Shown piece by piece: positions 9,854 through 33,991 of a stretch of DNA of 64,000 nucleotides (the stretch's first letter is position 1; every line of letters starts with the position of its first letter). Source of the DNA: a virus; the IMG/VR virus record IMGVR_UViG_3300044640_002221, positions 32,001 to 96,000 of that record; one strand, 5' to 3'. The translations under genes were made by a program, and so were the position numbers. The notes beneath the pieces were generated by a model that ran no database searches, had not been told where the DNA came from, and saw only the letters and a list, made by a program, of their open reading frames with translations.

Positions 9854-10213
9854 CTAAGTCTTAATATTGTTTGCTCTTTCAAAGTCCCTGAAGTCAACAC
9901 TCTCAACTATCTGCTGCAACACAGTTATGTCAAACGACTCAGGTACGACTAACTCACCTACTACTTGTGGGGTTAATACTTTATCTATTTGTTCTACTAA
10001 GTTTGGTTCTAGATTTAATAAGCCCGCCCACAGCGCATGACGAACTGACCTAATAAAGGCAAGTCGCGGGCTTACTATCAATCTTTGCTCTTGCTCTTCT
10101 CTTTTTTCTTCTGGTGCTGCAACAATTTCTTCAACTACTTCTATAGACTCTACAGAGCTTCTAATCTTTTGAGCTTGCTGTAGTAGCTTGTCTAAGTCCA
10201 ATAAACTCGGCAT
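9854..10213 (-). CDS. Hypothetical protein
   Basis: ORF track. Confidence 0.6.
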   Translation of the reverse strand: MPSLLDLDKLLQQAQKIRSSVESIEVVEEIVAAPEEKREEQEQRLIVSPRLAFIRSVRHALWAGLLNLEPNLVEQIDKVLTPQVVGELVVPESFDITVLQQIVESVDFRDFERANNIKT

Positions 10214-11681
10214 ACAACTCTTCCTCAGTTACAACCTTACTGCTATCAGGATATAGCTTATTCAAATGTGTAAGCCTCTTTCTAGCTTGGTTTAGGTAGT
10301 AATGAGGTTCTTCATCCCAGAAGTCTATTTGAAAGGCTGCAGTCTTGCGTTTAGATTGGTCTATCCTGATTCCCCTACCTGTCTTTTGAGTTACTCCAAT
10401 AGTTCCGCTTCCAGCTGCAGCATTAATGTTTAACCCAATACTTGGAAAGTCTACCCCTACGTTTAATGCTGGCGAGGAAAGCAATACTCTCATCTGACAG
10501 TTACTAAAGGCATTTTGTATACTTTCCCTTTCCTTTTTTTTAAGCAGTTTAGTATTGCTATGCACAAAAGGAATATCTAAACCTGTATTGGCAAACTCTT
10601 TTTGAAGTATTAGCCCATGTTCATCTATCTCTGTTACTAGAATTAGCACTTGACTATCAGATGTACACTCTAAATACTTTTGTACTACTCTGACGATCAG
10701 TTCGTTGCGGATTTTATTTCTACAGATAGCTGTAAGATAAACCTCTCGCTGCTCTGGCTTATCAGGATAAACTATTTTACCTCCTTTCATCACAGCGTTT
10801 GAGTAAATGGTAACTGATGCAGGCACTTTAATAAATCTTCCTTTAGGTTTATGGATAACTTTTTTATCAACCATCTCCATTTCTGGTATGACTAAGGCTA
10901 GTGGACCATATACACCTTCTAGGAGTAAATCAGCTCCTGATTCTGAGTACGCTGTGGCTGACAATCCTAACCGGAAGAAGGTATTGGGACAATGTTCGCC
11001 AATAGTCTGGTAAGAGTAACAAGAACCTGTGTGGCACTCATCGCCTATTAGAATTTCTGTTTCAGCTAAGTTGTACTTAAACTTACCCCCAGCATGAGAG
11101 AACAGCGAATTGATAATACCTACAGTTACACGCTGCCAGTCTTCTTTACCATCTCCTACTTGACCTATAGGCTCATCAAGAAACTCTGATAGTTGTTTTA
11201 CTAAAGACTTCTGCAAGGCTATTTGGGGTACAGTAATGAGGATTTTCTGGGTAGGGTATTGCTTGACTACCCATACTAAAGTTTTGCTCTTACCACTACC
11301 TGTAGGGGAGCTAATCATACAACGTTGGAAGTCAATAGCTGTCTTAACTGCTAACTCTTGATGATCCCATGCCCACTCAGGTAACTTCCAGGGGGTGTAA
11401 GCTTCTGCTTGGTATAAGCACTCTAGTTCATAGGGTTCTCCAATCTCTACTAAAAACTCTATTACTCTTGGCAACAACCCAGTGGGAAACGAACTGGTTC
11501 CAACGTCGTAGCAGCTTCTTTTAGGGTCTGCTGGATTCCATTTCTGGTAGTAGTTATTTCTTTCTACTTTCTTGTCTATCCACTGTAATAGCTGCTTAAG
11601 CTTGTAGTCTAGGTTTAGACCACCTGCTTGCTCCTTACTTATTACAGTAGCCTTTGCCCCATTAAAAACTATCTTTATCAC
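10161..11681 (-). CDS. Superfamily 2 helicase (UvsW/XPB-like)
   Basis: SPTGSGKS (Walker A), GDECH (DExH), GLSAT, LNVGVDFP, QKTGRGIR. Confidence 0.9.
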   Translation of the reverse strand: MIKIVFNGAKATVISKEQAGGLNLDYKLKQLLQWIDKKVERNNYYQKWNPADPKRSCYDVGTSSFPTGLLPRVIEFLVEIGEPYELECLYQAEAYTPWKLPEWAWDHQELAVKTAIDFQRCMISSPTGSGKSKTLVWVVKQYPTQKILITVPQIALQKSLVKQLSEFLDEPIGQVGDGKEDWQRVTVGIINSLFSHAGGKFKYNLAETEILIGDECHTGSCYSYQTIGEHCPNTFFRLGLSATAYSESGADLLLEGVYGPLALVIPEMEMVDKKVIHKPKGRFIKVPASVTIYSNAVMKGGKIVYPDKPEQREVYLTAICRNKIRNELIVRVVQKYLECTSDSQVLILVTEIDEHGLILQKEFANTGLDIPFVHSNTKLLKKKERESIQNAFSNCQMRVLLSSPALNVGVDFPSIGLNINAAAGSGTIGVTQKTGRGIRIDQSKRKTAAFQIDFWDEEPHYYLNQARKRLTHLNKLYPDSSKVVTEEELYAEFIGLRQATTASSKD

Positions 11682-11687
11682 GGCATT

Positions 11688-11712
11688 AAAAAGGGGAGTC
11701 TCAGCTCCCCTT
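11688..11712 (-). terminator. Rho-independent terminator
   Basis: On the minus strand AAGGGGAG-CTGAGA-CTCCCCTT followed by a T-run, downstream of the stop of 11735..13078. Confidence 0.65.
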
Positions 11713-11734
11713 AACTTAACTTCACAGATTAGAA

Positions 11735-13078
11735 CTACTCAACTGACTCTAATGTCTTTACTTTTGGTGCGAAGGCACTAAAAAGAGCTGGGTTGGTTTT
11801 TCCAACACTTGAAGAGCTTACAGGTTTAGTAACTACAGGTTCAGTTACAGCTTGCAGAGCAGGCATTCTAGGAGCAGACTCAAAACTAGTCTTACCATTA
11901 GCTACTTCACGCTCTAGCTTTAGAATAGACATAGCATGACGTACCCAGTCTAAAGAAGTCCAGCCTGCTTCAGCCTCAATTACATTTTTATCAGAGACAG
12001 GGTGGAATACTGGGATGTAGTCTTGACCATATTGCTGTTTCTCTAGGTGTCCACAATGCACTTCTGTTACTACTGGATAGCACAACTGACCACCTTGCAG
12101 AACACGGTGGCGTGTACCAGTATAGTTCTGGTCATGCAGGTACTTGAAGTATTCACCTGTAGAATAAATCTCTGAGGGAATGTGAGGGTCTGGTACTACG
12201 TTTCTGTCGAATGTTCCAGTACCAATCCCAGCGTGCTGGGACTTGGATAAACCTTTCAGCTTGAGAATGAATGGACGCTTGAAAGGAACTTTCTGATCTC
12301 CTTCCATTGTGTTAATCTTGGCATCCTCAATGCTTACCCATTTGATAGTAGCTTTTTCAGTATCAATATCATAGTTGTAGATACCTAACTGGAAGACAGC
12401 TATTAAGGCATAACCACCCATACTGCATTTAGCAAACTGAGCATTCTTGTCATTAAACAACTCAGGGTCTCCACCAGTTCCTTCTGGCTTACCATGTAGA
12501 TAATGCTCCCCTGCTTCTACACAAGACTTACAAGTTCGGGGAGTGCTAAAACTTGCGTTAGGATCTGCTCCGATAGGAGGACGACTACCATATAGAACCA
12601 TGTGCTCTTTATCTAACTGAGGGTTAAATACATGAGGATTATTCTTGTTCTGGTACATCCGCTCAAAAGGAAACTTGAGAGGATTGTTGTCGGTGGTATC
12701 TGTACTATTTTTACCTAAATGTTCTACTAAACGAGTAGTACGGCAGATGTTCTTAAAGTTTTTAGGGTCACTATTATCATCAAACGAAGCACCATAATGA
12801 AAGCCTAAGACAATCCCTCTTACAGCACAGAAGTGATGAGAGAAGTGTGATGATACTTCTTTATAAGTTCCAGCACCTTCTTCTCGCTCTTTCTTGGTAG
12901 TAGGTAAAGCCCAATCGAACTTATTAAGAGACTTGATTGAACACTCACGATGAGCTCTCCAAGTGTTGTCAAAGTCTTGACGCTGACCTTCACGCAGGGC
13001 TTGTGGTAATACTTCAGGGTTTTCTTCAAATATTAACTCTTCTGGTTCAAAAGTTGCTAAGTCAGATGTTGTAGTCAT
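11735..13078 (-). CDS. Hypothetical protein (replication-module position; possibly an ssDNA-binding or recombination protein)
   Basis: 447-aa ORF between the helicase and clamp-loader genes; no motif recognised. Confidence 0.55.
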   Translation of the reverse strand: MTTTSDLATFEPEELIFEENPEVLPQALREGQRQDFDNTWRAHRECSIKSLNKFDWALPTTKKEREEGAGTYKEVSSHFSHHFCAVRGIVLGFHYGASFDDNSDPKNFKNICRTTRLVEHLGKNSTDTTDNNPLKFPFERMYQNKNNPHVFNPQLDKEHMVLYGSRPPIGADPNASFSTPRTCKSCVEAGEHYLHGKPEGTGGDPELFNDKNAQFAKCSMGGYALIAVFQLGIYNYDIDTEKATIKWVSIEDAKINTMEGDQKVPFKRPFILKLKGLSKSQHAGIGTGTFDRNVVPDPHIPSEIYSTGEYFKYLHDQNYTGTRHRVLQGGQLCYPVVTEVHCGHLEKQQYGQDYIPVFHPVSDKNVIEAEAGWTSLDWVRHAMSILKLEREVANGKTSFESAPRMPALQAVTEPVVTKPVSSSSVGKTNPALFSAFAPKVKTLESVE

Positions 13079-13158: not shown

Positions 13159-13707
13159 CTAGCTTACTTTCTCGTAAACCACTTGGAAAGTGTTATGAAG
13201 AACTACTCTTGCTACACTAACTGTCATCTCTAGCCCAACGTTAGTGGCACTCTCCCAAGATTTTATCTGGTATATCTTGTATGGTCTACCATTTGAAAAC
13301 TCTTCAGCAGCTTCTTTGAGAACTTTTAAACAGGTGTTGTACTCGTAAAAGATAGCTTCTACCAGACTCTTTATAGGCATTTGAGGAGGCTCTCCTAGAT
13401 TATGCCCTGTAGCTACGCTTATAGAGATTTTGTGGTCGTAGTCTGAGTTAGAACATCCTTCAAAGTTTCTTTCTGTTACGTTTTCTTTGCCAATAAAACC
13501 ATCAGAAACTCTTGAGAGAAAAGCTTTTGACGTTTTTATTAAATTGTAAGAAAGATACTCTTTTTCTGGTTCTACCTTAGTGGAATCACATTTGGAAAAT
13601 TCTGCTACTGGCAGAAGCTCTGGGCTTCTTTCTATCACTTTTTTAAACCAGTTGAGCATATCTTCAACTGTCAAGCTAGACTGTATACTGTATTGAATTT
13701 CTTCCAT
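13159..13707 (-). CDS. Hypothetical protein
   Basis: ORF track. Confidence 0.6.
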   Translation of the reverse strand: MEEIQYSIQSSLTVEDMLNWFKKVIERSPELLPVAEFSKCDSTKVEPEKEYLSYNLIKTSKAFLSRVSDGFIGKENVTERNFEGCSNSDYDHKISISVATGHNLGEPPQMPIKSLVEAIFYEYNTCLKVLKEAAEEFSNGRPYKIYQIKSWESATNVGLEMTVSVARVVLHNTFQVVYEKVS

Positions 13708-13750
13708 TAATCTTTCTTACCATTCTCTTTTCTTTTTTCTTACCTACTTG

Positions 13751-14611
13751 CTACAGTCCTGCCATAGCAAGCCATTTTCGTTTAGCTTTGGGGGAAGGAT
13801 TGAAGTAAAAGTTTACTCCTTCTCCTTTAGGTGCTGTCTTTCTTGTTAGTCCTGGATATCCGCTAACAGCCCAATACTCTGTGGAAAAATAAACCCACTG
13901 TGCAAACCTTTTTAGAAACACACTCTGTCTATTACTAGACCAATGCTTTTCTACTAAATGGCAGAAAGGATTGATAAAAGGTACCAGCCCCTGCGCTTTA
14001 GCTATTTTTAGTAAAATAGGTTCGGATATTCCTGGAGTGACAAACCACTTTCTTAGTTCTCCCTTGGTGAAAGAACCCCACTGTGCCACCCCTTCTATAG
14101 TGGTTAACGAGTCTACAAGCGACTGCTCGTAGCTTAGTGAGTTAGTTCTAGAAAAGCTGTTCTTACCATATTCTAACTCATGCAAAGCTACGTAGGGGTA
14201 GGCGGGGAGGTCTTCTATTCTTCTGAGGTCTAAGATTCTATAACAACCACCTTCTATCTTTTTAGCCGCCCCAGCCAGCTTATCAGAGATCTCTGCTGAG
14301 AGTTCTGTGACAGCTATAAAAGCATAATTGGTTGGGTGAACAAAGAAGAAAGGGTCTGTGGGTAAAAGAAACTCGCTGGTTACTGTTCCTTTAATGCCAC
14401 TACCTTTTAACTCTTTAGGTTGAATAACAAATGCCGCGTCATTAAAAGTTGGGTACTCTAGAGCTTTACGAATCTGGTCTGAAGATGGCTCGTACAAAAG
14501 TTCAGGTTCTAGCCTTAACTTTCTACAAATCCAAGCTATCTGTTCTATAGTACCCAGAGTCAGATAAACACAGCCGGCTCTAAGCTGTGGTAGAACCTCA
14601 GCTAGTAACAT
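13751..14611 (-). CDS. Hypothetical protein, possibly a delta-like clamp-loader subunit
   Basis: 286 aa, overlapping the end of the DnaX-like gene; function inferred from context only. Confidence 0.4.
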   Translation of the reverse strand: MLLAEVLPQLRAGCVYLTLGTIEQIAWICRKLRLEPELLYEPSSDQIRKALEYPTFNDAAFVIQPKELKGSGIKGTVTSEFLLPTDPFFFVHPTNYAFIAVTELSAEISDKLAGAAKKIEGGCYRILDLRRIEDLPAYPYVALHELEYGKNSFSRTNSLSYEQSLVDSLTTIEGVAQWGSFTKGELRKWFVTPGISEPILLKIAKAQGLVPFINPFCHLVEKHWSSNRQSVFLKRFAQWVYFSTEYWAVSGYPGLTRKTAPKGEGVNFYFNPSPKAKRKWLAMAGL

Positions 14612-15719
14612 AGTTTATTACTCCATGATCTTCATCTTGGATGCAAGCTCCTCGTTGAACTAAGTTCTTTCCATACAACTGAGTCACATAAGTAATGAAG
14701 TTAGTTAGTTTAACCTCATATTGTGTGAGAAGGTTTAATGCTACTATTTGGTCTTCGGATAGATTATTAACCATAGCTGCTGAGGTAAGAATGTCATCCT
14801 GCATCTGCTTACAAAGCTGCTCTGGACTTACTCTTTCTAAAAGTTGCTTTGTATAGTGCATTGTATAGAGAAAGTTACTTTTACTCTGTAGCATTTCCCA
14901 TAAAGTCCAGCGCCATTCACCTCTTGCTCTCTGAGCTGTGTATGCTGCTACTTCTGGTGTAACCGTCTCAAACTTTTCTATGCAAGAATCATACAAAGCA
15001 GTAGCCACCCCTATTCTACCTTTAGAGCCTTCTGCTAATATACTTGCAGCTTCTGGGTTCAAGTCTGGGTAGGCTGCTCTCAGAAATACTGCGATAGCTT
15101 CTGGTTCTATTACTCCCAGTCTGATAACACCACTAGCTGACCTTCTTATCAAAGCTGTCCGGTCTTCCTCTGCTAAGTCTTCCTCTTTCATAGTTAGAAA
15201 GATATAACAAACTTGATTACCGGGTACTTCTAGCTCTGTGCGAAGTAAAACTTGCTGCCGAAGGTTTCTAGCGAACTCCTGCCACTCATCAAACACGACG
15301 AACAGTACATCGCGGCTAGGGTCTCCTGTGTTAGTTGCACCTTTAGCAGCAGCATGAAGAGCGTTCTTAACACTTTGGTTAATAGTCTCCTCGGTATAGC
15401 TTCCAGGTTGAACCCAGACTACTCCACTCATAGAGCGGTCTGATAACCTAACATCTATGTCCTTACAGGCTTCACACTCTCCACAAGGTTCATACTCCCC
15501 TTCTACTCTGTTAAGACACCTAAAAGATCGAATCAGAAGTAAGACTAAAGAGGTTTTGCCAACGCCTGACTTCCCTGTAATAAACAAGGAACGAGGTAGA
15601 GCTTTTGCCCCTTTAGTTACTATTCTTTTGAGATAATCAACTTCTGCTTGATTAGTTCCAGAGCCGCAGTAGTAATCTGCCCACCTTTTGGGGGATCTGG
15701 TATAAGGATGATTGTGCAT
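14598..15719 (-). CDS. dnaX: DNA polymerase III gamma/tau (DnaX)-like clamp-loader ATPase
   Basis: FITGKSGVGKTS Walker A, RCLN...EPCGECEAC Zn module, VVFDEWQ Walker B. Confidence 0.85.
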   Translation of the reverse strand: MHNHPYTRSPKRWADYYCGSGTNQAEVDYLKRIVTKGAKALPRSLFITGKSGVGKTSLVLLLIRSFRCLNRVEGEYEPCGECEACKDIDVRLSDRSMSGVVWVQPGSYTEETINQSVKNALHAAAKGATNTGDPSRDVLFVVFDEWQEFARNLRQQVLLRTELEVPGNQVCYIFLTMKEEDLAEEDRTALIRRSASGVIRLGVIEPEAIAVFLRAAYPDLNPEAASILAEGSKGRIGVATALYDSCIEKFETVTPEVAAYTAQRARGEWRWTLWEMLQSKSNFLYTMHYTKQLLERVSPEQLCKQMQDDILTSAAMVNNLSEDQIVALNLLTQYEVKLTNFITYVTQLYGKNLVQRGACIQDEDHGVINYVTS

Positions 15720-18532: not shown

Positions 18533-19106
18533 CTGTTACCCCAAATACGTCTTGTATTAACTTCTGTTGAGCTTCTTCCAGTTCTGCTTGTTCTTCTAAC
18601 ACTTTCAAAACTAACTCAGGGTTTGCAGCACCATACTTCTCTTTAACTTTAGACTCTGCATCAAGAACTTTTTGAGCAGCTCTAAAAGGCATAAAGCAAG
18701 GCTTACCCATAGCTAGATTAGCCTCTCCTAAATAAGCCTTAAGATATACGTCTAAGCAAGGCGTTTCTTCTCCATTAACTACTAAATCTTCTATTACTCT
18801 GACAACTACCTCTATACTTGCCCCATCAGCACCTTCTGGAGGGTGAACTACTAAGCTTCCGGTTTCACCTTCCTCTAACTCAAGTTCATTACCTACATTT
18901 AGGAAGCAAACTTCATTAAAGTTATCAGGTACTGGTGGAATAGGCATCCAAGCCTTAATTTTATAAGGGAGACCCCAACACCCATCTGTAAAGTTCTGGA
19001 CTGTTGCCTCGTCTCCACTGCTTGTAGTAATAATTGTCAAGTATCTACCATCCTCTTCAGGACGCGTGGTTACTGGTCTGTAAAGCTTTCCTAATTCCGT
19101 GATCAT
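18522..19106 (-). CDS. Hypothetical protein with a DUF551-like N-terminus
   Basis: RPEEDGRYLT...IKAWMPIPPVP; paralogous to 18050..18532. Confidence 0.6.
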   Translation of the reverse strand: MITELGKLYRPVTTRPEEDGRYLTIITTSSGDEATVQNFTDGCWGLPYKIKAWMPIPPVPDNFNEVCFLNVGNELELEEGETGSLVVHPPEGADGASIEVVVRVIEDLVVNGEETPCLDVYLKAYLGEANLAMGKPCFMPFRAAQKVLDAESKVKEKYGAANPELVLKVLEEQAELEEAQQKLIQDVFGVTDAD

Positions 19107-23603: not shown

Positions 23604-23894
23604 CTAGAGGAGCTTGCGATTTGCTCTATTAGAGTCTAGATAATCATCCAAATATTCTTGTAAGCAGACAGAGCCGCAGAAAGTTCCTTGTTCATTTTGA
23701 GAATGAGGTACTAGGACTTCACTTCTAATAGTTAAAGTAACCAGCAGACTGTGGTTTAAGTCCATCTTTAGACTCCCTCCACACCAGTCGCAGCAATCTT
23801 TCTTACCTATAGCTCCTGTCATTGTTTGCCTCCTAGATATGACAAAGGGAGGGTAATACCCTCCCCTCTTATCAATGAAGCCAGATTGGTCCAA
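23604..23894 (-). CDS. Hypothetical protein with CxxC pairs
   Basis: CDWCG...CGSVC. Confidence 0.55.
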   Translation of the reverse strand: MDQSGFIDKRGGYYPPFVISRRQTMTGAIGKKDCCDWCGGSLKMDLNHSLLVTLTIRSEVLVPHSQNEQGTFCGSVCLQEYLDDYLDSNRANRKLL

Positions 23895-24123
23895 TATTGT
23901 ACTCAGCTCGTCCGGTCAAGGGACTGCCAGCAGCTTTAAAGAACTCAGTCTCTACTTCCACCATTATTCTGTGAATCAGCTCTGCTGCTTCTTTAGCCTC
24001 CGCGTCCCAAGCAAACTTAGGTGTAGTTGGTCTACCATCTTTATCAATTACGTTACCGTGTTTATCAAAGAAGGTTTTAGTCTCATCTATCCAAGTCTTA
24101 CCCGGAGCGCGGGCGTTTAGTTC
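23872..24123 (-). CDS. polA: Family A DNA polymerase, last exon
   Basis: ELNARAPG...AELIHRIMVEVE...YNIGPIWLH* completes motif C (VHD|EL) and the IG..W..H terminus; follows the intron terminal G at 24124. Confidence 0.9.
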   Translation of the reverse strand, partial: ELNARAPGKTWIDETKTFFDKHGNVIDKDGRPTTPKFAWDAEAKEAAELIHRIMVEVETEFFKAAGSPLTGRAEYNIGPIWLH

Positions 24124-24274: not shown

Positions 24275-24355
24275 TGGATGCTAAAAGAGTTGAACTTTTC
24301 TTGGGTTTCCCCACGACTTATGAGGTCGTTGCCTAAACCGCTCGGCCAAGCATCC
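24275..24355 (-). tRNA. tRNA(CAU), probably Ile2 (Met not excluded), with a 13-nt variable region; nested in intron 4
   Basis: GGATGCT/AGCATCC+A acceptor; D arm GCCGAGCGGTTTAGGC; ACGAC-CTCATAA-GTCGT anticodon arm; GGGGAAACCC variable hairpin; AAAAG-TTCAACT-CTTTT T arm; no encoded CCA. Confidence 0.88.
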
Positions 24356-24427
24356 ATCTTTATAGTTTAGCACCTTGGCTGCTGATTGTCCATATCCTTG
24401 TTCTTTTTAAACCTGATGACAGCTAGT

Positions 24428-24703
24428 TTAACAAAGGTCTAAGTTACCTTCTGAACTATAATCTACGTCTGTCAGATGGTCTTGACAACATAAGTAAACT
24501 TTTGCGTCTGCTTTTACCAATCCATCTGCTAACAACTTCTGCACCTTATCTAAAAGCTGCTGAACTGTTATTGCTTCTGGGGGTTTAGGAGCATAGTTTT
24601 GAGGTACTAGTAATGCCCCTATGGTCTTTAAACCTGGATGAGGTGCAGCACCACTTTTGGTTATTGTTTTAGGAAGTATGTAAGGTTCTGTCATGTCTTC
24701 CAC
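24428..24703 (-). CDS. Intron-encoded hypothetical protein (no nuclease motif)
   Basis: ORF track; enclosed by the stem ATGATAGTTA/TAGCTGTCAT between the P and Q elements. Confidence 0.6.
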   Translation of the reverse strand: MEDMTEPYILPKTITKSGAAPHPGLKTIGALLVPQNYAPKPPEAITVQQLLDKVQKLLADGLVKADAKVYLCCQDHLTDVDYSSEGNLDLC

Positions 24704-24815
24704 TATTTATTAACTATCATTATAATCACGCTTGCCGTTTCCAGCTACGTTGTGGTGAACAAGGCTCTGAGGAATTTCCAGCAATTTAAGCTCTTTACCC
24801 ACGACCAACTAATCA

Positions 24816-24905
24816 ATCGTGCACCGCGTTTAATATTATAATTCCTGTTCCTTTAGCCTCCTTTCGTACGCGTATCATGGCTTCTTTCATCATCTGGGCG
24901 CATTC
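24816..24905 (-). CDS. polA: Family A DNA polymerase exon (30 codons)
   Basis: ECAQMMKEAMIRVRKEAKGTGIIILNAVHD, matching the IQGxAAD..K.AM to motif C segment. Confidence 0.9.
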
Positions 24906-25000
24906 CGATTATGTTATCACTGAGCTTTTTATCTCAGTTTCTAAAGATTTCTCCTTAGTCCAGGGCACGTCTTGAACAGTAAGTGGGTAGTAGGTTTGGT

Positions 25001-25366
25001 CTAGAAGGGAGAGGCGTAACCTTTCCAGTCTTCTATGGTATTTAAGGTTTGAGTCTCAGTGGTCAGTCCAGCTATTAAAGTAGAGACACCTCCTTGTAAG
25101 TTTGGTAGTTTTATTCCTTTAGAAGGATTAGCTCTTTCAAACTCTGCATAAGCTTTATCAGAGTAAAACTGCCCCGTGCTTTGCTGGAGTTGGTCTCTCA
25201 GCTTAGTGTTCTCTTCCATAGCAACAATCAACTTTTCAGTCAATTGTTGGTTCTGTGTTTGCAGGTCAGCTACTAAAGCTTGATAGCTACTGGTGAGAAC
25301 TATCTTGGTGTCAAGTATCTTCTCTAAGTCAGAAGACTCGACGAACTGTTCGTTGTGGTTGTTCAT
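25001..25366 (-). CDS. Intron-encoded hypothetical coiled-coil protein
   Basis: ORF track 25001..25411; likely start is ATG 25366, just after the upstream stop. Confidence 0.6.
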   Translation of the reverse strand: MNNHNEQFVESSDLEKILDTKIVLTSSYQALVADLQTQNQQLTEKLIVAMEENTKLRDQLQQSTGQFYSDKAYAEFERANPSKGIKLPNLQGGVSTLIAGLTTETQTLNTIEDWKGYASPF

Positions 25367-25370
25367 TTGT

Positions 25371-25979
25371 TTAGATAACGTAAGGTTGAACAATTGCGCG
25401 GTACTCTTCAAGTCTGGCTTCTAAGGTTTGGCACTTAGTTTCAAGTTGATTAATCTGCTCTACATACTTAGGAACTAAGTCTTCAAGCTCTGCCAATCTA
25501 GCTCTCAAGTGTATGAGTTCTGACTTTGAGCTTTCCTTCTTCTCTGTAGCCTTTTCAGACTGTTCATTAAAGTAGTCTTCTGCAGTACCTTCCCATAAAG
25601 GGTTAGCCTCAAGCTTATCAACTGCCCAGCGAAGAATCTTATCACTGATAATTACTTTGAAGCAGCTCTCTTCTTTTAGAAGACCAATCTTTTCCACAAC
25701 GTCCCAATGCTCATAGAGGAAGATACAGCGGTAAGCTTTTCTTCTTTCTACTCTCTCTTCTAAATAATGATTAAAAGAGTTGAAAGTTCCTCTGTCAGTT
25801 TCTACAGGGTTAGACTTAGTAGCTGATGCCAGCATATCTCTAATCTTTGTGAGAGACTCTCCAGCATCTCGGTAATGTTGAAGGCTCTTTCTCCTTAACT
25901 GTTGAGACTCTTTAAAGTTCTCGTCAGCTTCACCAAACTTAGTCATGTAATTTGTTTCTAATAGAGATAGGATAAGCAT
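25371..25979 (-). CDS. Intron-encoded protein, DUF3102-like N-terminus plus coiled coil
   Basis: YRDAGESLTKIRDML...F.HYLEE.V..RKAYRCI.LYEHW resembles the N-terminus of 43906..45258. Confidence 0.55.
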   Translation of the reverse strand: MLILSLLETNYMTKFGEADENFKESQQLRRKSLQHYRDAGESLTKIRDMLASATKSNPVETDRGTFNSFNHYLEERVERRKAYRCIFLYEHWDVVEKIGLLKEESCFKVIISDKILRWAVDKLEANPLWEGTAEDYFNEQSEKATEKKESSKSELIHLRARLAELEDLVPKYVEQINQLETKCQTLEARLEEYRAIVQPYVI

Positions 25980-26320
25980 AGAACTTTTATTCTGCTAAAG
26001 GACATGACCTGTGGTTTAAACCACAGGTTCTCATTACTAATATAGCAGCTTATTCTAGAAGAAACATCTTGAGTCTTATTAAACCTTCCAACTACCTTAA
26101 TACGACCTTTGCTGCCTACTTACTGTCCGGGGGCGCTCTTGGGTCTCTTACCGTCTGTTCCTGCAATGCAAGACTGAAGACTTAGACCTGCCCGTCGCAC
26201 CTTCCTACCATTTCTGATAGGCTTGGCTCAAAGTTATCCTCAACATCACTTGGTAGGACTTTCTTATGAGTTCACCCCCTGCACTCTAAAAGTCACCTAA
26301 TAGAGGGGCAATTGTTATTT

Positions 26321-27204
26321 CAGTGTTATTACCGTCAAGGCTCTTTATCCCTGACTTCTACTGGTCACCCAGCAGCTTGGACTATTTCATTATCTAGACT
26401 TAGTAGTAGAACTCTCTTTCTATTTAAGAAGAAACCAGGTTCTTGGTACATAAGCTTGGTCAGCCGTTCAACGCGTTCCTTACTGCCGACTCTTATCACT
26501 TGCACACTCCTATTGTTGTAGATGCTAACCTTAAAGTCATTCTCTCTAAGAAAACTAACTAATTGGTCAACAAACTCTTTACTAGCAGAGCATAAAGTTA
26601 TAGCTTTGTAATCCCCTTTTGCCCCATCCTTTTTGATGTGACCATTCCCATCCATGACACCTCTAAAGAAGCTAAAACTTAAAGGAAAGTTAACCTTTAA
26701 AGATTTACTCTTTCTAGGGGTTATTCCAAGGCTAGTTAAATAAGAAGCAACTTCTTTATTAGTGAAGCTTACCTCGTAATAAGTAGTTTGGTATCTCTTG
26801 TCGAAGATAGGGTAGGGTTTCATCAATTCCCCTAAAAAGCTGCAGAAAGCTAAGGCTAAGTCTTCATCTTTTGTAACTAGACTAACCTTTCCTCTATCAT
26901 GCACGCAGCCATCTGTTGCCATTATTCCCAGCCAGTATTGAACTTCTGGGGCAAGCATTTCTGTAAATGGATTAGTTGTTACTTTCTTAGGGAGTCTTGG
27001 CATCTTTTTCTCTACTACATTCTCAGTCTAGATATCGGGCGCTCGTGGGCAGATTATTATTGGGATTCACTGCCTAGTCTCTGAACCTTCTAGGAAACCT
27101 ATGCCCTTCCTAGCTTGGCTTAGCGTTATCTTACCTTGTAAGACTTTCACTAAATTCACCCGATTTTCATTTATTGATTACTCAATAAAGGGGCTCTCTA
27201 CGGG
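26321..27204 (-). mobile_element. Group I intron 3a of polA (884 nt) with a LAGLIDADG gene in P8
   Basis: IGS GCCCC; P GAAUUUAGUGAAA; R UUCAGAGACUA; P3' CGCCCGAU; P8 AUCUAGACU/AGUCUAGAU; S GAAAUAGUC; ends AUAACACUG. Confidence 0.88.
26365..27003 (-). CDS. LAGLIDADG homing endonuclease (double motif)
   Basis: YWLGIMATDGCV and FFRGVMDGNGHI. Confidence 0.9.
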   Translation of the reverse strand: MPRLPKKVTTNPFTEMLAPEVQYWLGIMATDGCVHDRGKVSLVTKDEDLALAFCSFLGELMKPYPIFDKRYQTTYYEVSFTNKEVASYLTSLGITPRKSKSLKVNFPLSFSFFRGVMDGNGHIKKDGAKGDYKAITLCSASKEFVDQLVSFLRENDFKVSIYNNRSVQVIRVGSKERVERLTKLMYQEPGFFLNRKRVLLLSLDNEIVQAAG

Positions 27205-27274
27205 ACCCTGGATCGCGTGGTTCACTGCAGCGCGAACCGAGCTTTCTCCTACGCCCTTAGCATTCTCTTCATCT
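27205..27274 (-). CDS. polA: Family A DNA polymerase exon (70 nt)
   Basis: (V)DEENAKGVGESSVRAAVNHAIQG, the R.A.N..IQG motif. Confidence 0.9.
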
Positions 27275-27441
27275 CTATTGTGTTATCGCCAGGGCTCTTT
27301 ATCCTTGGCTTCTGTAGGTTATTTTTCCACTACAGTACAGACTATATCATCAACTTAAAAGCAAGCAATTAGTTAAACGTACGGTGTTTTAGTCACGTAG
27401 ACTATTTTGAGTTATTCTTTCTCTTTTCTTTTTTATTACTC

Positions 27442-27573
27442 CTACTGCTTAAACACTACTTCTCTGACGCTGCTGTCCTCTCTTTGTAAGAAAAGTTTAG
27501 ACCCTGCTATTCTTTCCTTTAAGAAGTAAGCTCCTGTAACTATAGCTTTTGTACTTACTTCTTCTGTGGTCAT
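27442..27573 (-). CDS. Small hypothetical protein (43 aa), intron 2 cargo
   Basis: Hand translation MTTEEVSTKAIVTGAYFLKERIAGSKLFLQREDSSVREVVFKQ. Confidence 0.4.
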   Translation of the reverse strand: MTTEEVSTKAIVTGAYFLKERIAGSKLFLQREDSSVREVVFKQ

Positions 27574-27639
27574 ATCTTGGCTTCTAAAATGTTTGTAATG
27601 GAAACACTCTGTTTGCTAAGTAGCTTGTCCTCTAGTTGG

Positions 27640-28512
27640 TCAATCTTTGGTATGTTCACTTTGTTGTGCTTGCCAGACAGTAATACCAACTTCATCTTCT
27701 ATAGCTACTAACTCAGCCGTTATGTTAAAGCTCGAAAAATCAAAAACGCTGACTAAATCTACAGATTTAATATGTACCGCTTTTAAAGACAAAGCAGAAA
27801 CTACACGATAGAATAACTCTTCTTGATTACTTACAGAGTTCTTGATTAAGTAAGTTAACTTGTAAAGTTGAGGAGTGGGAGCGGTGTTTTTAACGCTACA
27901 AACTACATTACCCTCTTCATCTTCTACTCTTGTTAAAGACCAAATAGAGTCTTCGGTACTGAACTCTCCCGCAATATCAAAGCCTTTTTGTTTAGCTAAG
28001 TTTTCAGACTCAGTGCTGAATATCTTATAAAACTCACTGACAGAAGCTTTGTTGTTTACAGAGAATACCAGTTTGTAATCTTGAGAATGCTCTTCTTCTA
28101 AGCACTCACCAACTTCACAGTCCCAAACTATCAGGTTGTCTGAGTCATAAATACGTTTTAAAGTTACTAACCTCTCAGAACCTTGAAGTGCATCTATTGT
28201 AATCTCTGCTGCTACTAAAGCTTCTTGCAGGTCTTTAACTATAACTTCTCTTTCTAAGTTAAAGCTTCTTGGTACAATTTGCTTATTAACGTAAAACTCT
28301 AGCCTGAAAGTTTTCAGGTAAGAATATCTACAATGAAGTCTATAAAGAACTGCGCCAGCTCTAGTTTGACCATCTTTAAGAGTCTCTCTAGCTGCATCTA
28401 AGTAACCCTGAAGTACCTCTCTTTCAATGCCTGGATAGCTTTGGATTAGAAACTCTAGGGTCGGGAGTTCTTTTAAAGTATCGGCAATCAAACAATTGTA
28501 TAGTTGTTGCAT
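27640..28512 (-). CDS. Hypothetical protein with internal YKL repeats, intron 2 cargo
   Basis: ORF track; repeated YKL...FY(K/R)...(V/L)EDE.G..V units. Confidence 0.65.
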   Translation of the reverse strand: MQQLYNCLIADTLKELPTLEFLIQSYPGIEREVLQGYLDAARETLKDGQTRAGAVLYRLHCRYSYLKTFRLEFYVNKQIVPRSFNLEREVIVKDLQEALVAAEITIDALQGSERLVTLKRIYDSDNLIVWDCEVGECLEEEHSQDYKLVFSVNNKASVSEFYKIFSTESENLAKQKGFDIAGEFSTEDSIWSLTRVEDEEGNVVCSVKNTAPTPQLYKLTYLIKNSVSNQEELFYRVVSALSLKAVHIKSVDLVSVFDFSSFNITAELVAIEDEVGITVWQAQQSEHTKD

Positions 28513-31723: not shown

Positions 31724-32154
31724 ACCCATCTCCATAATCCTGATACTGGAGAGATAGCATATCCTCTGGCGGCTGCGATCGCTCCGAACTCTTCTGCCCA
31801 AGCGTAATAACCTGGATAGGTAGTTCTGTGTCCTGTTAACCAAGACTGAGCTACTTCTTCTTTTACACAGAAGTTTTCAGCAGCTGTTGAAGCGGACATA
31901 AGATATATGCTACCAAAGTTGAGAGATTTTGCACTCTTCCTTGCTCCGCTTTTGTCTGCTATTGCTCTCCATTCGTGCTCTGGTTTTCCTTCAAATAAAT
32001 GAGGGGCTACACAACCTTTTGATGAGAGAGTATGTAAATCGGAGTAGGGATTTACATACTCTGTACCATCTTCTAAGTAGAGCTTAGTTTTTGCTAGATA
32101 ACTGTTGACCATTGTGGGGTCTTTCGACCATGCTGCGGCTGTGATTAGCTCTTG
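31724..32154 (-). CDS. polA: Family A DNA polymerase exon containing motif B
   Basis: QELITAAAWSKDPTM...DLHT...RKSAKSLNFGSIY...SGLWRW(V); 431 nt, and phase matches both neighbouring exons. Confidence 0.92.
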
Positions 32155-33877: not shown

Positions 33878-33991
33878 ACCTGCGTAATCACAGCTTATAT
33901 GCACTTCTCCTGGTCTACATTCAAACCCTACTCTGGGATTACCTGGGAAGGTAATTGTTCTTGTTTCAGGTTGCCATAGAGTAATTCCCAA
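33878..33991 (-). CDS. polA: Family A DNA polymerase exon containing motif A
   Basis: ...TITFPGNPRVGFECRPGEVHISCDYAG; same frame as 34154..35554 but separated from it by 4 stops; the 5' limit (TTG 33991, preceded by AAAGGA) is uncertain. Confidence 0.75.

Follow-up and report, generated by a model that had tools for sequence, protein, structure and literature searches.

Tandem group I introns with no exon base between them in an uncultured freshwater virus's DNA polymerase gene

The DNA analysed here (the window, 64,000 nucleotides in length, positions 32,001 to 96,000 of IMG/VR record IMGVR_UViG_3300044640_002221) is part of a 136.9-kb metagenome-assembled virus record from lake water, and the virus is an uncultured freshwater cyanophage-like virus. 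On its minus strand the window carries a family-A DNA polymerase, for which matches among sequenced phages were obtained only from Microcystis and Pseudanabaena phages (23-28% identity), and a megablast search against GenBank phages gave nothing relevant. The C-terminal polymerase gene (polA) is interrupted by several group I introns. Its five exons (Table 1) can be joined into a single open frame of 318 amino acids (aa), in which motif A reads DYAGQE, motif B RKSAKSLNFGSIY and motif C VHDE; the last three exons were re-derived in the present analysis and the whole frame was checked. The third exon, E3, ends with ...GCGATCCAGGGT and the fourth, E4, begins with GAATGCGCCCAGATGATGAAA (GAATGCGCCCAGATG). 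Between them lie two complete group I introns, the upstream 3a and the downstream 3b, which follow each other without a single exon base.

The initial annotation had described this arrangement as two tandem introns with a zero-length exon, and we could confirm it at every base from the window sequence, from a related genome, from Rfam and from a covariance model of the intron family (R1, described below). The related genome, L001, is a 197-kb IMG/VR contig (94% complete) with approximately 73% protein identity to the window. In L001 the exon end GCGATCCAAGGT is joined directly to AAATTACATTTGCCCC, the start of the 3b orthologue, and this intron ends before GAATGTTCGCAAATG. When 3a is removed from the window in silico, the remaining sequence aligns to L001 from E3 via 3b into E4 with no gap at the joint. 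The first and last bases of the 3a insert differ from its flanks and there is no common edge base, so the insertion cannot slide. The 3b-only allele of L001 thus places 3a exactly at the 5' splice junction of 3b, as had been proposed. Direct joining of GGU to GAA restores the reading frame (AVNHAIQG|ECAQMMKE) without gaps against the uninterrupted homologues. More distant relatives (L003-L007) have no intron at this place: L003 and L004 read AVNYAIQG|ESS.. and L005 reads AVNHAVQG|LAS.., colinear with AVNHAIQG|ECAQ in the window. The glycine codon before the junction is GGG or GGA in those intronless genes that have glycine and GGT in both intron-bearing genes, where the U-G rule of the splice site requires it.

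A micro-exon between the two introns was rejected, since the intronless relatives have neither a missing nor an extra residue and the L001 alignment is gapless at the joint. A nested twintron was likewise rejected, because 3a stands before base +1 of 3b and the bases of 3b are all contiguous. The label twintron-like is therefore fair in the sense of the side-by-side type, with two complete modules at one site. Of these modules, 3b occurs alone in L001, and no genome with 3a only was found among the relatives searched. As the window is a metagenome-assembled record, a chimeric assembly or exon bases hidden between 3a and 3b could be suspected, but this is hardly credible: across 25132-28000, both junctions included, the window agrees with 0 differences with a Logan contig of 4601 nt from a different sample (X3), which indicates that the tandem is not an assembly artefact, and the boundaries are set independently by L001 and the intronless homologues. 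When contigs from four DNA runs were compared with the window, neither a 3a-less nor a 3b-less joint was seen, and the runs that held the region partially were fragmented low-depth assemblies.

Table 1. Exons, introns and intron parts of the C-terminal polA region in the window
Feature	Position	Strand	Description
Exon 1	33991..33878	minus	
Exon 2	32154..31724	minus	
Exon E3	27274..27205	minus	70 nt, ..DEENAKGVGESSVRAAVNHAIQG; from translation, tblastn to relatives and sequence
Intron 3a	27204..26321	minus	884 nt, complete group I intron; starts CCCGTAGAGAGCCCC, ends AATAACACTG
3a 5' core	27204..27034	minus	
3a guide	27194-27191	minus	GCCC
3a P2	27189-27170	minus	
3a P3	27164-27158 with 27040-27034	minus	
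3a P4	27153-27148 with 27125-27120	minus	
3a P5	27143-27138 with 27134-27129	minus	
3a P6a	27113-27107 with 27096-27090	minus	
3a P7, 5' strand	27079-27075	minus	GACUA
3a P7.1	27074-27070 with 27052-27048	minus	
3a P8	27032-27025 with 26400-26393	minus	loop houses the endonuclease gene
3a homing endonuclease gene	27003..26365	minus	212 aa, double LAGLIDADG (putative cleavage activity), in the P8 loop
3a 3' core	26400..26321	minus	P8 3' strand, J8/7, P7 3' strand onwards
3a P7, 3' strand	26384-26380	minus	UAGUC
3a P9	26375-26358	minus	GUGA loop
3a P9.1	26355-26334	minus	
3a tail		minus	CGGUAAUAACACUG, with terminal G
Intron 3b	26320..24906	minus	1415 nt, complete group I intron; starts AAATAACAATTGCCCC, ends AACATAATCG
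3b 5' core	26320..26129	minus	P1 intron side AA/UU
3b guide	26309-26306	minus	GCCC
3b P2	26305-26284	minus	
3b P3	26279-26274 with 26134-26129	minus	
3b P4, P5, P6		minus	per family alignment
3b P6a	26221-26215 with 26210-26204	minus	
3b P7, 5' strand	26193-26189	minus	GGGCA
3b P7.1 region	26181-26153	minus	
3b P8	26126-26118 with 24984-24976	minus	loop houses the cargo open reading frames
3b cargo open reading frame 1	25979..25371	minus	202 aa, coiled-coil C-terminus; 71% identical to L001 17290-17910
3b cargo open reading frame 2	25366..25001	minus	about 121 aa from ATG at 25366; about 71% identical to L001 17916-18221 over 65 aa
3b 3' core	24984..24906	minus	P8 3' strand, J8/7, P7 3' strand onwards
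3b P7, 3' strand	24971-24963	minus	GAC-G-UGCCC
3b P9	24958-24941	minus	
3b P9.1	24937-24920	minus	
3b tail		minus	UGAUAACAUAAUCG
Exon E4	24905..24816	minus	90 nt, ECAQMMKEAMIRVRKEAKGTGIIILNAVHD; further intron after HD|E
Exon 5	24123..23872	minus	

Intron 3a has the features expected of a group I intron. A U precedes its first base and its last base, at 26321, is the terminal G. It matches the whole of Rfam model RF00028 (model positions 1-253) at 63.7 bits (gathering score 50; E 7.7e-14), and it scores 147 bits with R1, the training set of which includes 3a. Its P1 consists of 4 bp between the exon end GGGU, followed by CCC..., and the guide GCCC, with a U-G pair at the splice site in the same register as in sister intron 2. 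The open reading frame (ORF) in its P8 loop is a LAGLIDADG homing endonuclease by motif criteria (Pfam PF14528 in two stretches, E 2.5e-12; PHROG 4645 endonuclease, E 4e-28), and its cleavage activity is putative. The frame is intact, its final codons extend into J8/7, P7 and P9, and both motifs (LGIMATDGCV and FRGVMDGNGH) are conserved in an 80% identical homologue, P0083. An alignment search for 3a-type endonucleases detected only a 29% relative in viral contigs and nothing in genome contigs. A LAGLIDADG gene with 29% identity to that of 3a is found in L003 at about 1915-2499 (G002 24948-25532), directly before a further intron core (L003 2516-2678) that R1 detects at 53 bits (E 3e-13), approximately 7.5 kb upstream of the polymerase of this 54% relative.

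Intron 3b also ends in a terminal G. It is the orthologue of the sole intron at this site in L001, with which it is colinear (L001 16898-18322), and the identity in the 5' core is 89.6-91.6%. Since Rfam alone missed 3b, the covariance model R1 was built from the 5' halves of 3a, of L001 intron 2 and of intron 1 of both phages, with 3b excluded. R1 detects 3b at 26129-26328 over its full length, at model positions 1-182 of 182, with 61.7 bits and E ~1e-15, and the L001 orthologue at 67.2 bits. Thus 3b is a member of the phage's own group I intron family and has the same core architecture as its sister introns. The cargo of 3b comprises two conserved genes of no known family and no endonuclease gene according to Pfam and PHROG; for ORF 1 neither database gave a significant family, nor was an endonuclease family found.

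Comparison across the family supports these folds. RNAalifold on six 5' halves recovered P2, P3, P4, P5, P6 and P6a, with two-sided (compensatory) changes in 25 of the 39 pairs and covariation in P3, P4, P5, P6 and P6a. Seven 3' halves could be aligned across J8/7, P7, the P9 hairpin, the P9.1 hairpin (GAUAAAGAG loop) and a GAUAACA-type tail with the final G. Every named helix pairs completely in both 3a and 3b, including P7, P8, P9 and P9.1 of 3b, in which P7 (GGGCA/UGCCC) is altered on both strands compared to the GACUA/UAGUC of the others. Between the window and L001, 3b shows compensated changes in P5, P6a and P9.1, indicating that the RNA structure is under selection. The hairpin between P7 and P3 in both introns places the family with the IA-type introns. 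The cores of 3a and 3b are identical at only 47-53% of positions, and an origin of the pair by tandem duplication was rejected on this ground.

Further observations concern other members of the family. L001 introns 2 and 3b have an identical 27-nt P9 segment, tgaacgtgcaaggtaacttgcagaagc (L001 16768-16794 and 18266-18292), and P9 of 3b in the window (CUAAGG/CUUUAG) differs from the L001 copy; judging from these sequences, the common segment looks like gene conversion between introns of one gene. P8 of intron 2 is a helix of about 20 bp that closes approximately 3.5 kb of genes (window 30913-30890 and 27400-27380), and L001 has a different 20-bp sequence in the same place, fully compensated. Two loose contig ends from other runs indicate that the intron family is present in other genes or phages of these lakes: in run X7 a contig end at 27277 joins the 3' end of an intron-2-like element to other downstream sequence, and in run X6 a short 3a-like P2/P3 piece (27153-27188) is found in another context.

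How the two introns leave the transcript can be approached from their guides. A GCCCC stretch lies a few bases inside both introns, as had been annotated, and in both the guide GCCC, preceded by a purine-rich or AU-rich stretch, pairs with the same exon end GGGU (27208-27205), the splice-site U standing opposite G. These last four bases of E3 are therefore the 5' strand of P1 for 3a and 3b alike. The proposal that removal of 3a regenerates P1 of 3b was borne out by folding E3 joined to 3b, which gives GGGUAA/UUGCCC (6 bp, 7-nt loop, -6.3 kcal/mol) with the U-G pair at the junction, and with the terminal G of 3b and the restored frame at the other end. The tail of 3a joined to the start of 3b gives no structure (0.0 kcal/mol), so 3b cannot use the 3a tail as its 5' exon. 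The model proposed for fungal introns, in which the downstream intron is spliced first by using the tail of the upstream intron as a pseudo-exon, was rejected accordingly, as the 3a tail has no pairing to the 3b guide.

The locus is a side-by-side group I pair with 3a exactly between the last U of the exon and the first base of 3b. It is likely that 3b is the resident at this position behind the Gly codon of AIQG|E, and that the pair is spliced by a two-step ratchet. The guide of 3a, which sits 10 nt from the splice site and is made some 900 nt ahead of the 3b guide, would form P1 first. Then 3a would splice itself out and E3 would become joined to the first base of 3b, giving the intermediate CAGGGU-AAAUAACAAUUGCCCC (CAGGGU-AAAUAACAAUUG). 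In this intermediate the hairpin GGGU-AA/UU-GCCC, the normal P1 of 3b, would arise, and 3b would splice out in turn, joining GGU to GAA. That both ribozymes are active and act in this order is what we infer. In the primary transcript the 3b guide could reach E3 only over approximately 900 nt and with 4 bp, and the 3a guide is near and comes first, which makes the stepwise route the most likely one, though not an obligatory one.

Several observations weigh against this interpretation. P1 of 3a has only 4 bp in the U-G register, and its minimum-energy fold is shifted by one base so that the splice-site U is unpaired, as it also is in the Rfam alignment. No convincing P10 was found in either intron; candidate pairings of 3a to either the start of 3b or E4, and of 3b to E4, were all trivial at -1 to -3 kcal/mol. 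A search for sequencing runs that contain the region listed no RNA run. RF00028 gave no match on 24880-26340, which contains 3b, even at E<=10, and the L001 orthologue reached only 25.5 bits (E 0.007); the long P8 insert and the unusual P7 (GGGCA/UGCCC) probably account for the miss. Regarding the order of arrival, a 3a-type gene (P0083) appears to occur in a strain 99% identical to L001, and the tandem may accordingly be old and 3a may have been lost in L001. Finally, as the guides are identical, 3b could act on the distal 5' splice site, and no single order is imposed. The annotation had stated that splicing must be ordered, and this goes too far, as a one-step route with the cut at the distal 5' splice site and ligation to the 3' splice site of 3b would yield the same mRNA.

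Such one-step excision, in which the pair acts as one 2.3-kb intron and no E3-3b intermediate arises, seems to us improbable. The guide of 3b, or a cooperative ribozyme of the two introns, would pair with E3, cut at GGU|CCC and ligate at the terminal G of 3b. With both GCCC guides directed at the same GGGU, either core could carry out the first step at 27205/27204, and both a cooperative 'single large ribozyme' and the use of distal 5' splice sites have been shown experimentally in engineered tandem Tetrahymena introns, as has exon skipping between Twort introns 2 and 3 (PMC10136302); composite splicing has also been proposed for the fungal cox3-640 tandem intron (PMC7902536). On the other hand, in the precursor P1 of 3b would be 4 bp closing a loop of approximately 900 nt, compared to 6 bp and a 7-nt loop after removal of 3a, and the 3a guide is adjacent to the exon and transcribed first. 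Moreover, 3a has a full core above the Rfam threshold with the correct U and terminal G at its own ends, and the cores are only about 50% alike with different P7s (GACUA/UAGUC and GGGCA/UGCCC), which argues against hybrid folding. Because of the zero-length exon, 'skipping' gives the correct mRNA, and this may be a reason why the arrangement is tolerated.

The same four bases are also read at a third site, as the 5' exon of intron 2 (31724/31723) ends UGGGU and its guide is GCCC(C), so that introns 2, 3a and 3b within 4.5 kb read the same sequence. If the end of the second exon mispaired with the guide of 3a or 3b, the 70-nt E3 would be skipped and the frame shifted; compare the exon skipping in Twort.

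Turning to the history of the pair, the asymmetry of the pairings favours the arrival of 3a at a site already held by 3b, because the 3a guide fits the exon and nothing in 3a, its tail included, fits the guide of 3b. The direction of the event is less clear, since a gain in the lineage of the window and a loss in L001 both fit. In viral contigs, the L001 contig was the only one found by scans with the 3a endonuclease, with 3b ORF 1, with a pattern of the 3b core or with a degenerate pattern of E3. Two scans of metagenome contigs for relatives found nothing, and a protein search with an antisense ORF at 27101-27358, which spans intron 2, E3 and 3a, gave no match. The closest protein relatives were P0001 (97%) and P0002 (90%), and also P0005.

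It is quite possible, though short of probable in our view, that the tandem is ancestral and that L001 has lost 3a precisely, in which case it would be an old stable state of this phage group and not a recent invasion. P0083, the 80% identical 3a-type endonuclease, and P0005, a 99% match to the N-terminal polymerase gene of L001, agree in their contig tally (5 contigs, longest 69318), and the 80% of P0083 is near the divergence of other orthologues between the two lineages (54-75%). If P0083 and P0005 lie on the same contigs, strains of the L001 lineage differ in whether they have the 3a-type intron, and the tandem would be either old with a recent loss or mobile. However, the co-location is deduced from the matching tallies only, the 197-kb L001 record itself has no 3a-type gene, and an intron is lost exactly only through a special event, for instance if the gene recombines with a 3b-only allele or with cDNA.

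The initial annotation held that 3a homed into the 5' junction of 3b. The exact position stands, whereas homing as the route is doubtful. An allele occupied by 3b has other sequence in place of the presumed target's 3' half (GAATGCGCC to AAATAACAA), so that the LAGLIDADG enzyme would find only half of its target, and ordinary double-strand-break repair from a 3a-only donor would use the E4 homology and replace 3b instead of stacking onto it. A broader DNA-level explanation, by homing or by illegitimate double-strand-break repair with the exact junction reflecting selection for a working polymerase, is possible but not one we would favour. It agrees with the intact LAGLIDADG gene of 3a and with T4, for which the acquisition of an intron despite limited homology of the exons has been recorded (Parker et al. 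1999, cited in PMC3984707). It is harder to reconcile with the half target, with the expected replacement of 3b and with the 3a/3b joint, where no microhomology was seen.

Reverse splicing is one possible route of entry for 3a, as it needs only 4-6 nt of 5' exon. In the fuller form of this idea, the RNA of 3a was reverse-spliced into a 3b-containing polymerase pre-mRNA after GGGU and then copied to DNA, which we regard as rather unlikely. GGGU is the only sequence the 3a guide needs, and reverse splicing would produce the exact joint in one step. In line with this route, GGGU is the 5' exon end at intron 2 as well as at the 3a/3b site, and GCCC guides read it in either place. Mobility of group I introns by reverse splicing is without direct experimental proof in any system (PMC3984707), a point that also counts in favour of the DNA-level explanation. 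If the RNA-level route were true, the locus would be natural phage evidence for the long-postulated spread of group I introns by reverse splicing, and an occupied homing site would not be protected against a second intron.

Side-by-side group I twintrons have been described in fungal mitochondria, namely mS917a/b in rns of Endoconidiophora resinifera (PMC6279837), cox3-i2 of Hypomyces aurantius (PMC4964425) and cox3-640 of Ophiostoma ips (PMC7902536); according to these papers, none of the fungal cases has undergone splicing assays. As in the fungal cases, the phage locus consists of two consecutive group I modules at one insertion site, both complete and both with ORFs of their own, and the 'no apparent exon sequence' between the modules of mS917a/b (PMC6279837) is a particular likeness. 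In the phage, the LAGLIDADG carrier is the upstream module, 3a. The fungal pairs are organellar and the phage pair is viral. In cox3-640 a 16-nt spacer separates the modules (PMC7902536), compared to zero in the phage. For H. aurantius it has been proposed that the downstream intron invaded a sequence resembling its site at the end of the upstream one; this sequence would serve as a pseudo-exon, and the downstream intron would splice first (PMC4964425). In contrast, the 3a tail cannot pair with the 3b guide, both guides read the real exon, and it is the upstream intron that is missing from the relative. A 'ratchet-like' model was put forward for O. ips cob-490 (Hafez and Hausner 2015, as cited in PMC7902536), and according to that citation the second module there likewise regains its P1 in an intermediate, once the first has been removed; as described, the ratchet of cob-490 depends on a six-base pseudo-exon separating the modules and on nesting, whereas the phage pair has no base between the modules and P1 uses the true exon.

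Among phages, introns 2 and 3 of orf142 in Staphylococcus phage Twort (Landthaler and Shub 1999, PMC22036), described together with the 23S rRNA introns of Coxiella in PMC10136302, are comparable in that two related self-splicing IA-type introns lie close together in one phage gene, and exon skipping is described there as shown experimentally. According to the same description the introns are separated by an exon of 23 nt in Twort and 34 nt in Coxiella, so skipping removes coding sequence, whereas with the zero-length exon both routes lead to the same mRNA. Introns in phage DNA polymerase genes are known from cyanophage Pf-WMP3 with I-PfoP3I (PMC3428280) and from Bastillevirinae (PMC11878797).

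Group IA2 introns are present in the DNA polymerase genes of SPO1 and its relatives. The gene class and the kind of intron are the same as in the window, and so are the placement of endonuclease genes in peripheral loops and the targeting of conserved polymerase motifs. SPO1, Pf-WMP3 and Bastillevirinae have a single intron per site, whereas the window has two at one site. Goodrich-Blair and Shub reportedly found in 1996 that the intron endonucleases of SPO1 and SP82 compete and exclude one another. A full-text literature search for twintron together with phage or bacteriophage found no phage case, and neither twintrons nor tandem introns come up in a review of bacterial group I introns (PMC3984707). 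The locus is thus the first phage case of zero-spacer tandem group I introns that we could find, while tandem twintrons and the ratchet have already been proposed for fungal mitochondria.

Further inserted elements were noted elsewhere in the polymerase gene. The intron between E4 and the fifth exon contains a tRNA gene (window 24275-24355, minus strand; Rfam 50.8 bits) that is conserved in L001 at 18563-18643. In a depth-10 contig of run X5, the stretch 24393-24760 of this intron, which holds a 91-aa ORF (24428-24703), is exchanged for 29 other bases, indicating that a strain or relative without that intron ORF exists. The L001 polymerase has two inteins, one after GAATSRS (CIAAG...VHNS; 9983-12391) and one in motif B (CVTGDTKV...; 13251-15095), and both are missing from the window. 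Inteins and introns have thus colonised the same gene in differing combinations. The tandem also bears on annotation, as a readable polymerase is obtained in this phage group only when the exons are joined across the stacked introns.

In homing theory, an occupied site is closed to further invasion. In the window a second, endonuclease-bearing intron sits where another intron is already in place; its boundaries are known to the base, and a natural 3b-only allele is available for comparison. In vitro self-splicing is usually efficient in phage group I introns, and the 2.5-kb E3-3a-3b-E4 region would be a simple system for three questions raised by the fungal tandem introns: whether such a pair follows a fixed splicing order or acts as a single unit, how two identical guides compete for one exon end, and whether reverse splicing can place one intron at the 5' junction of another.

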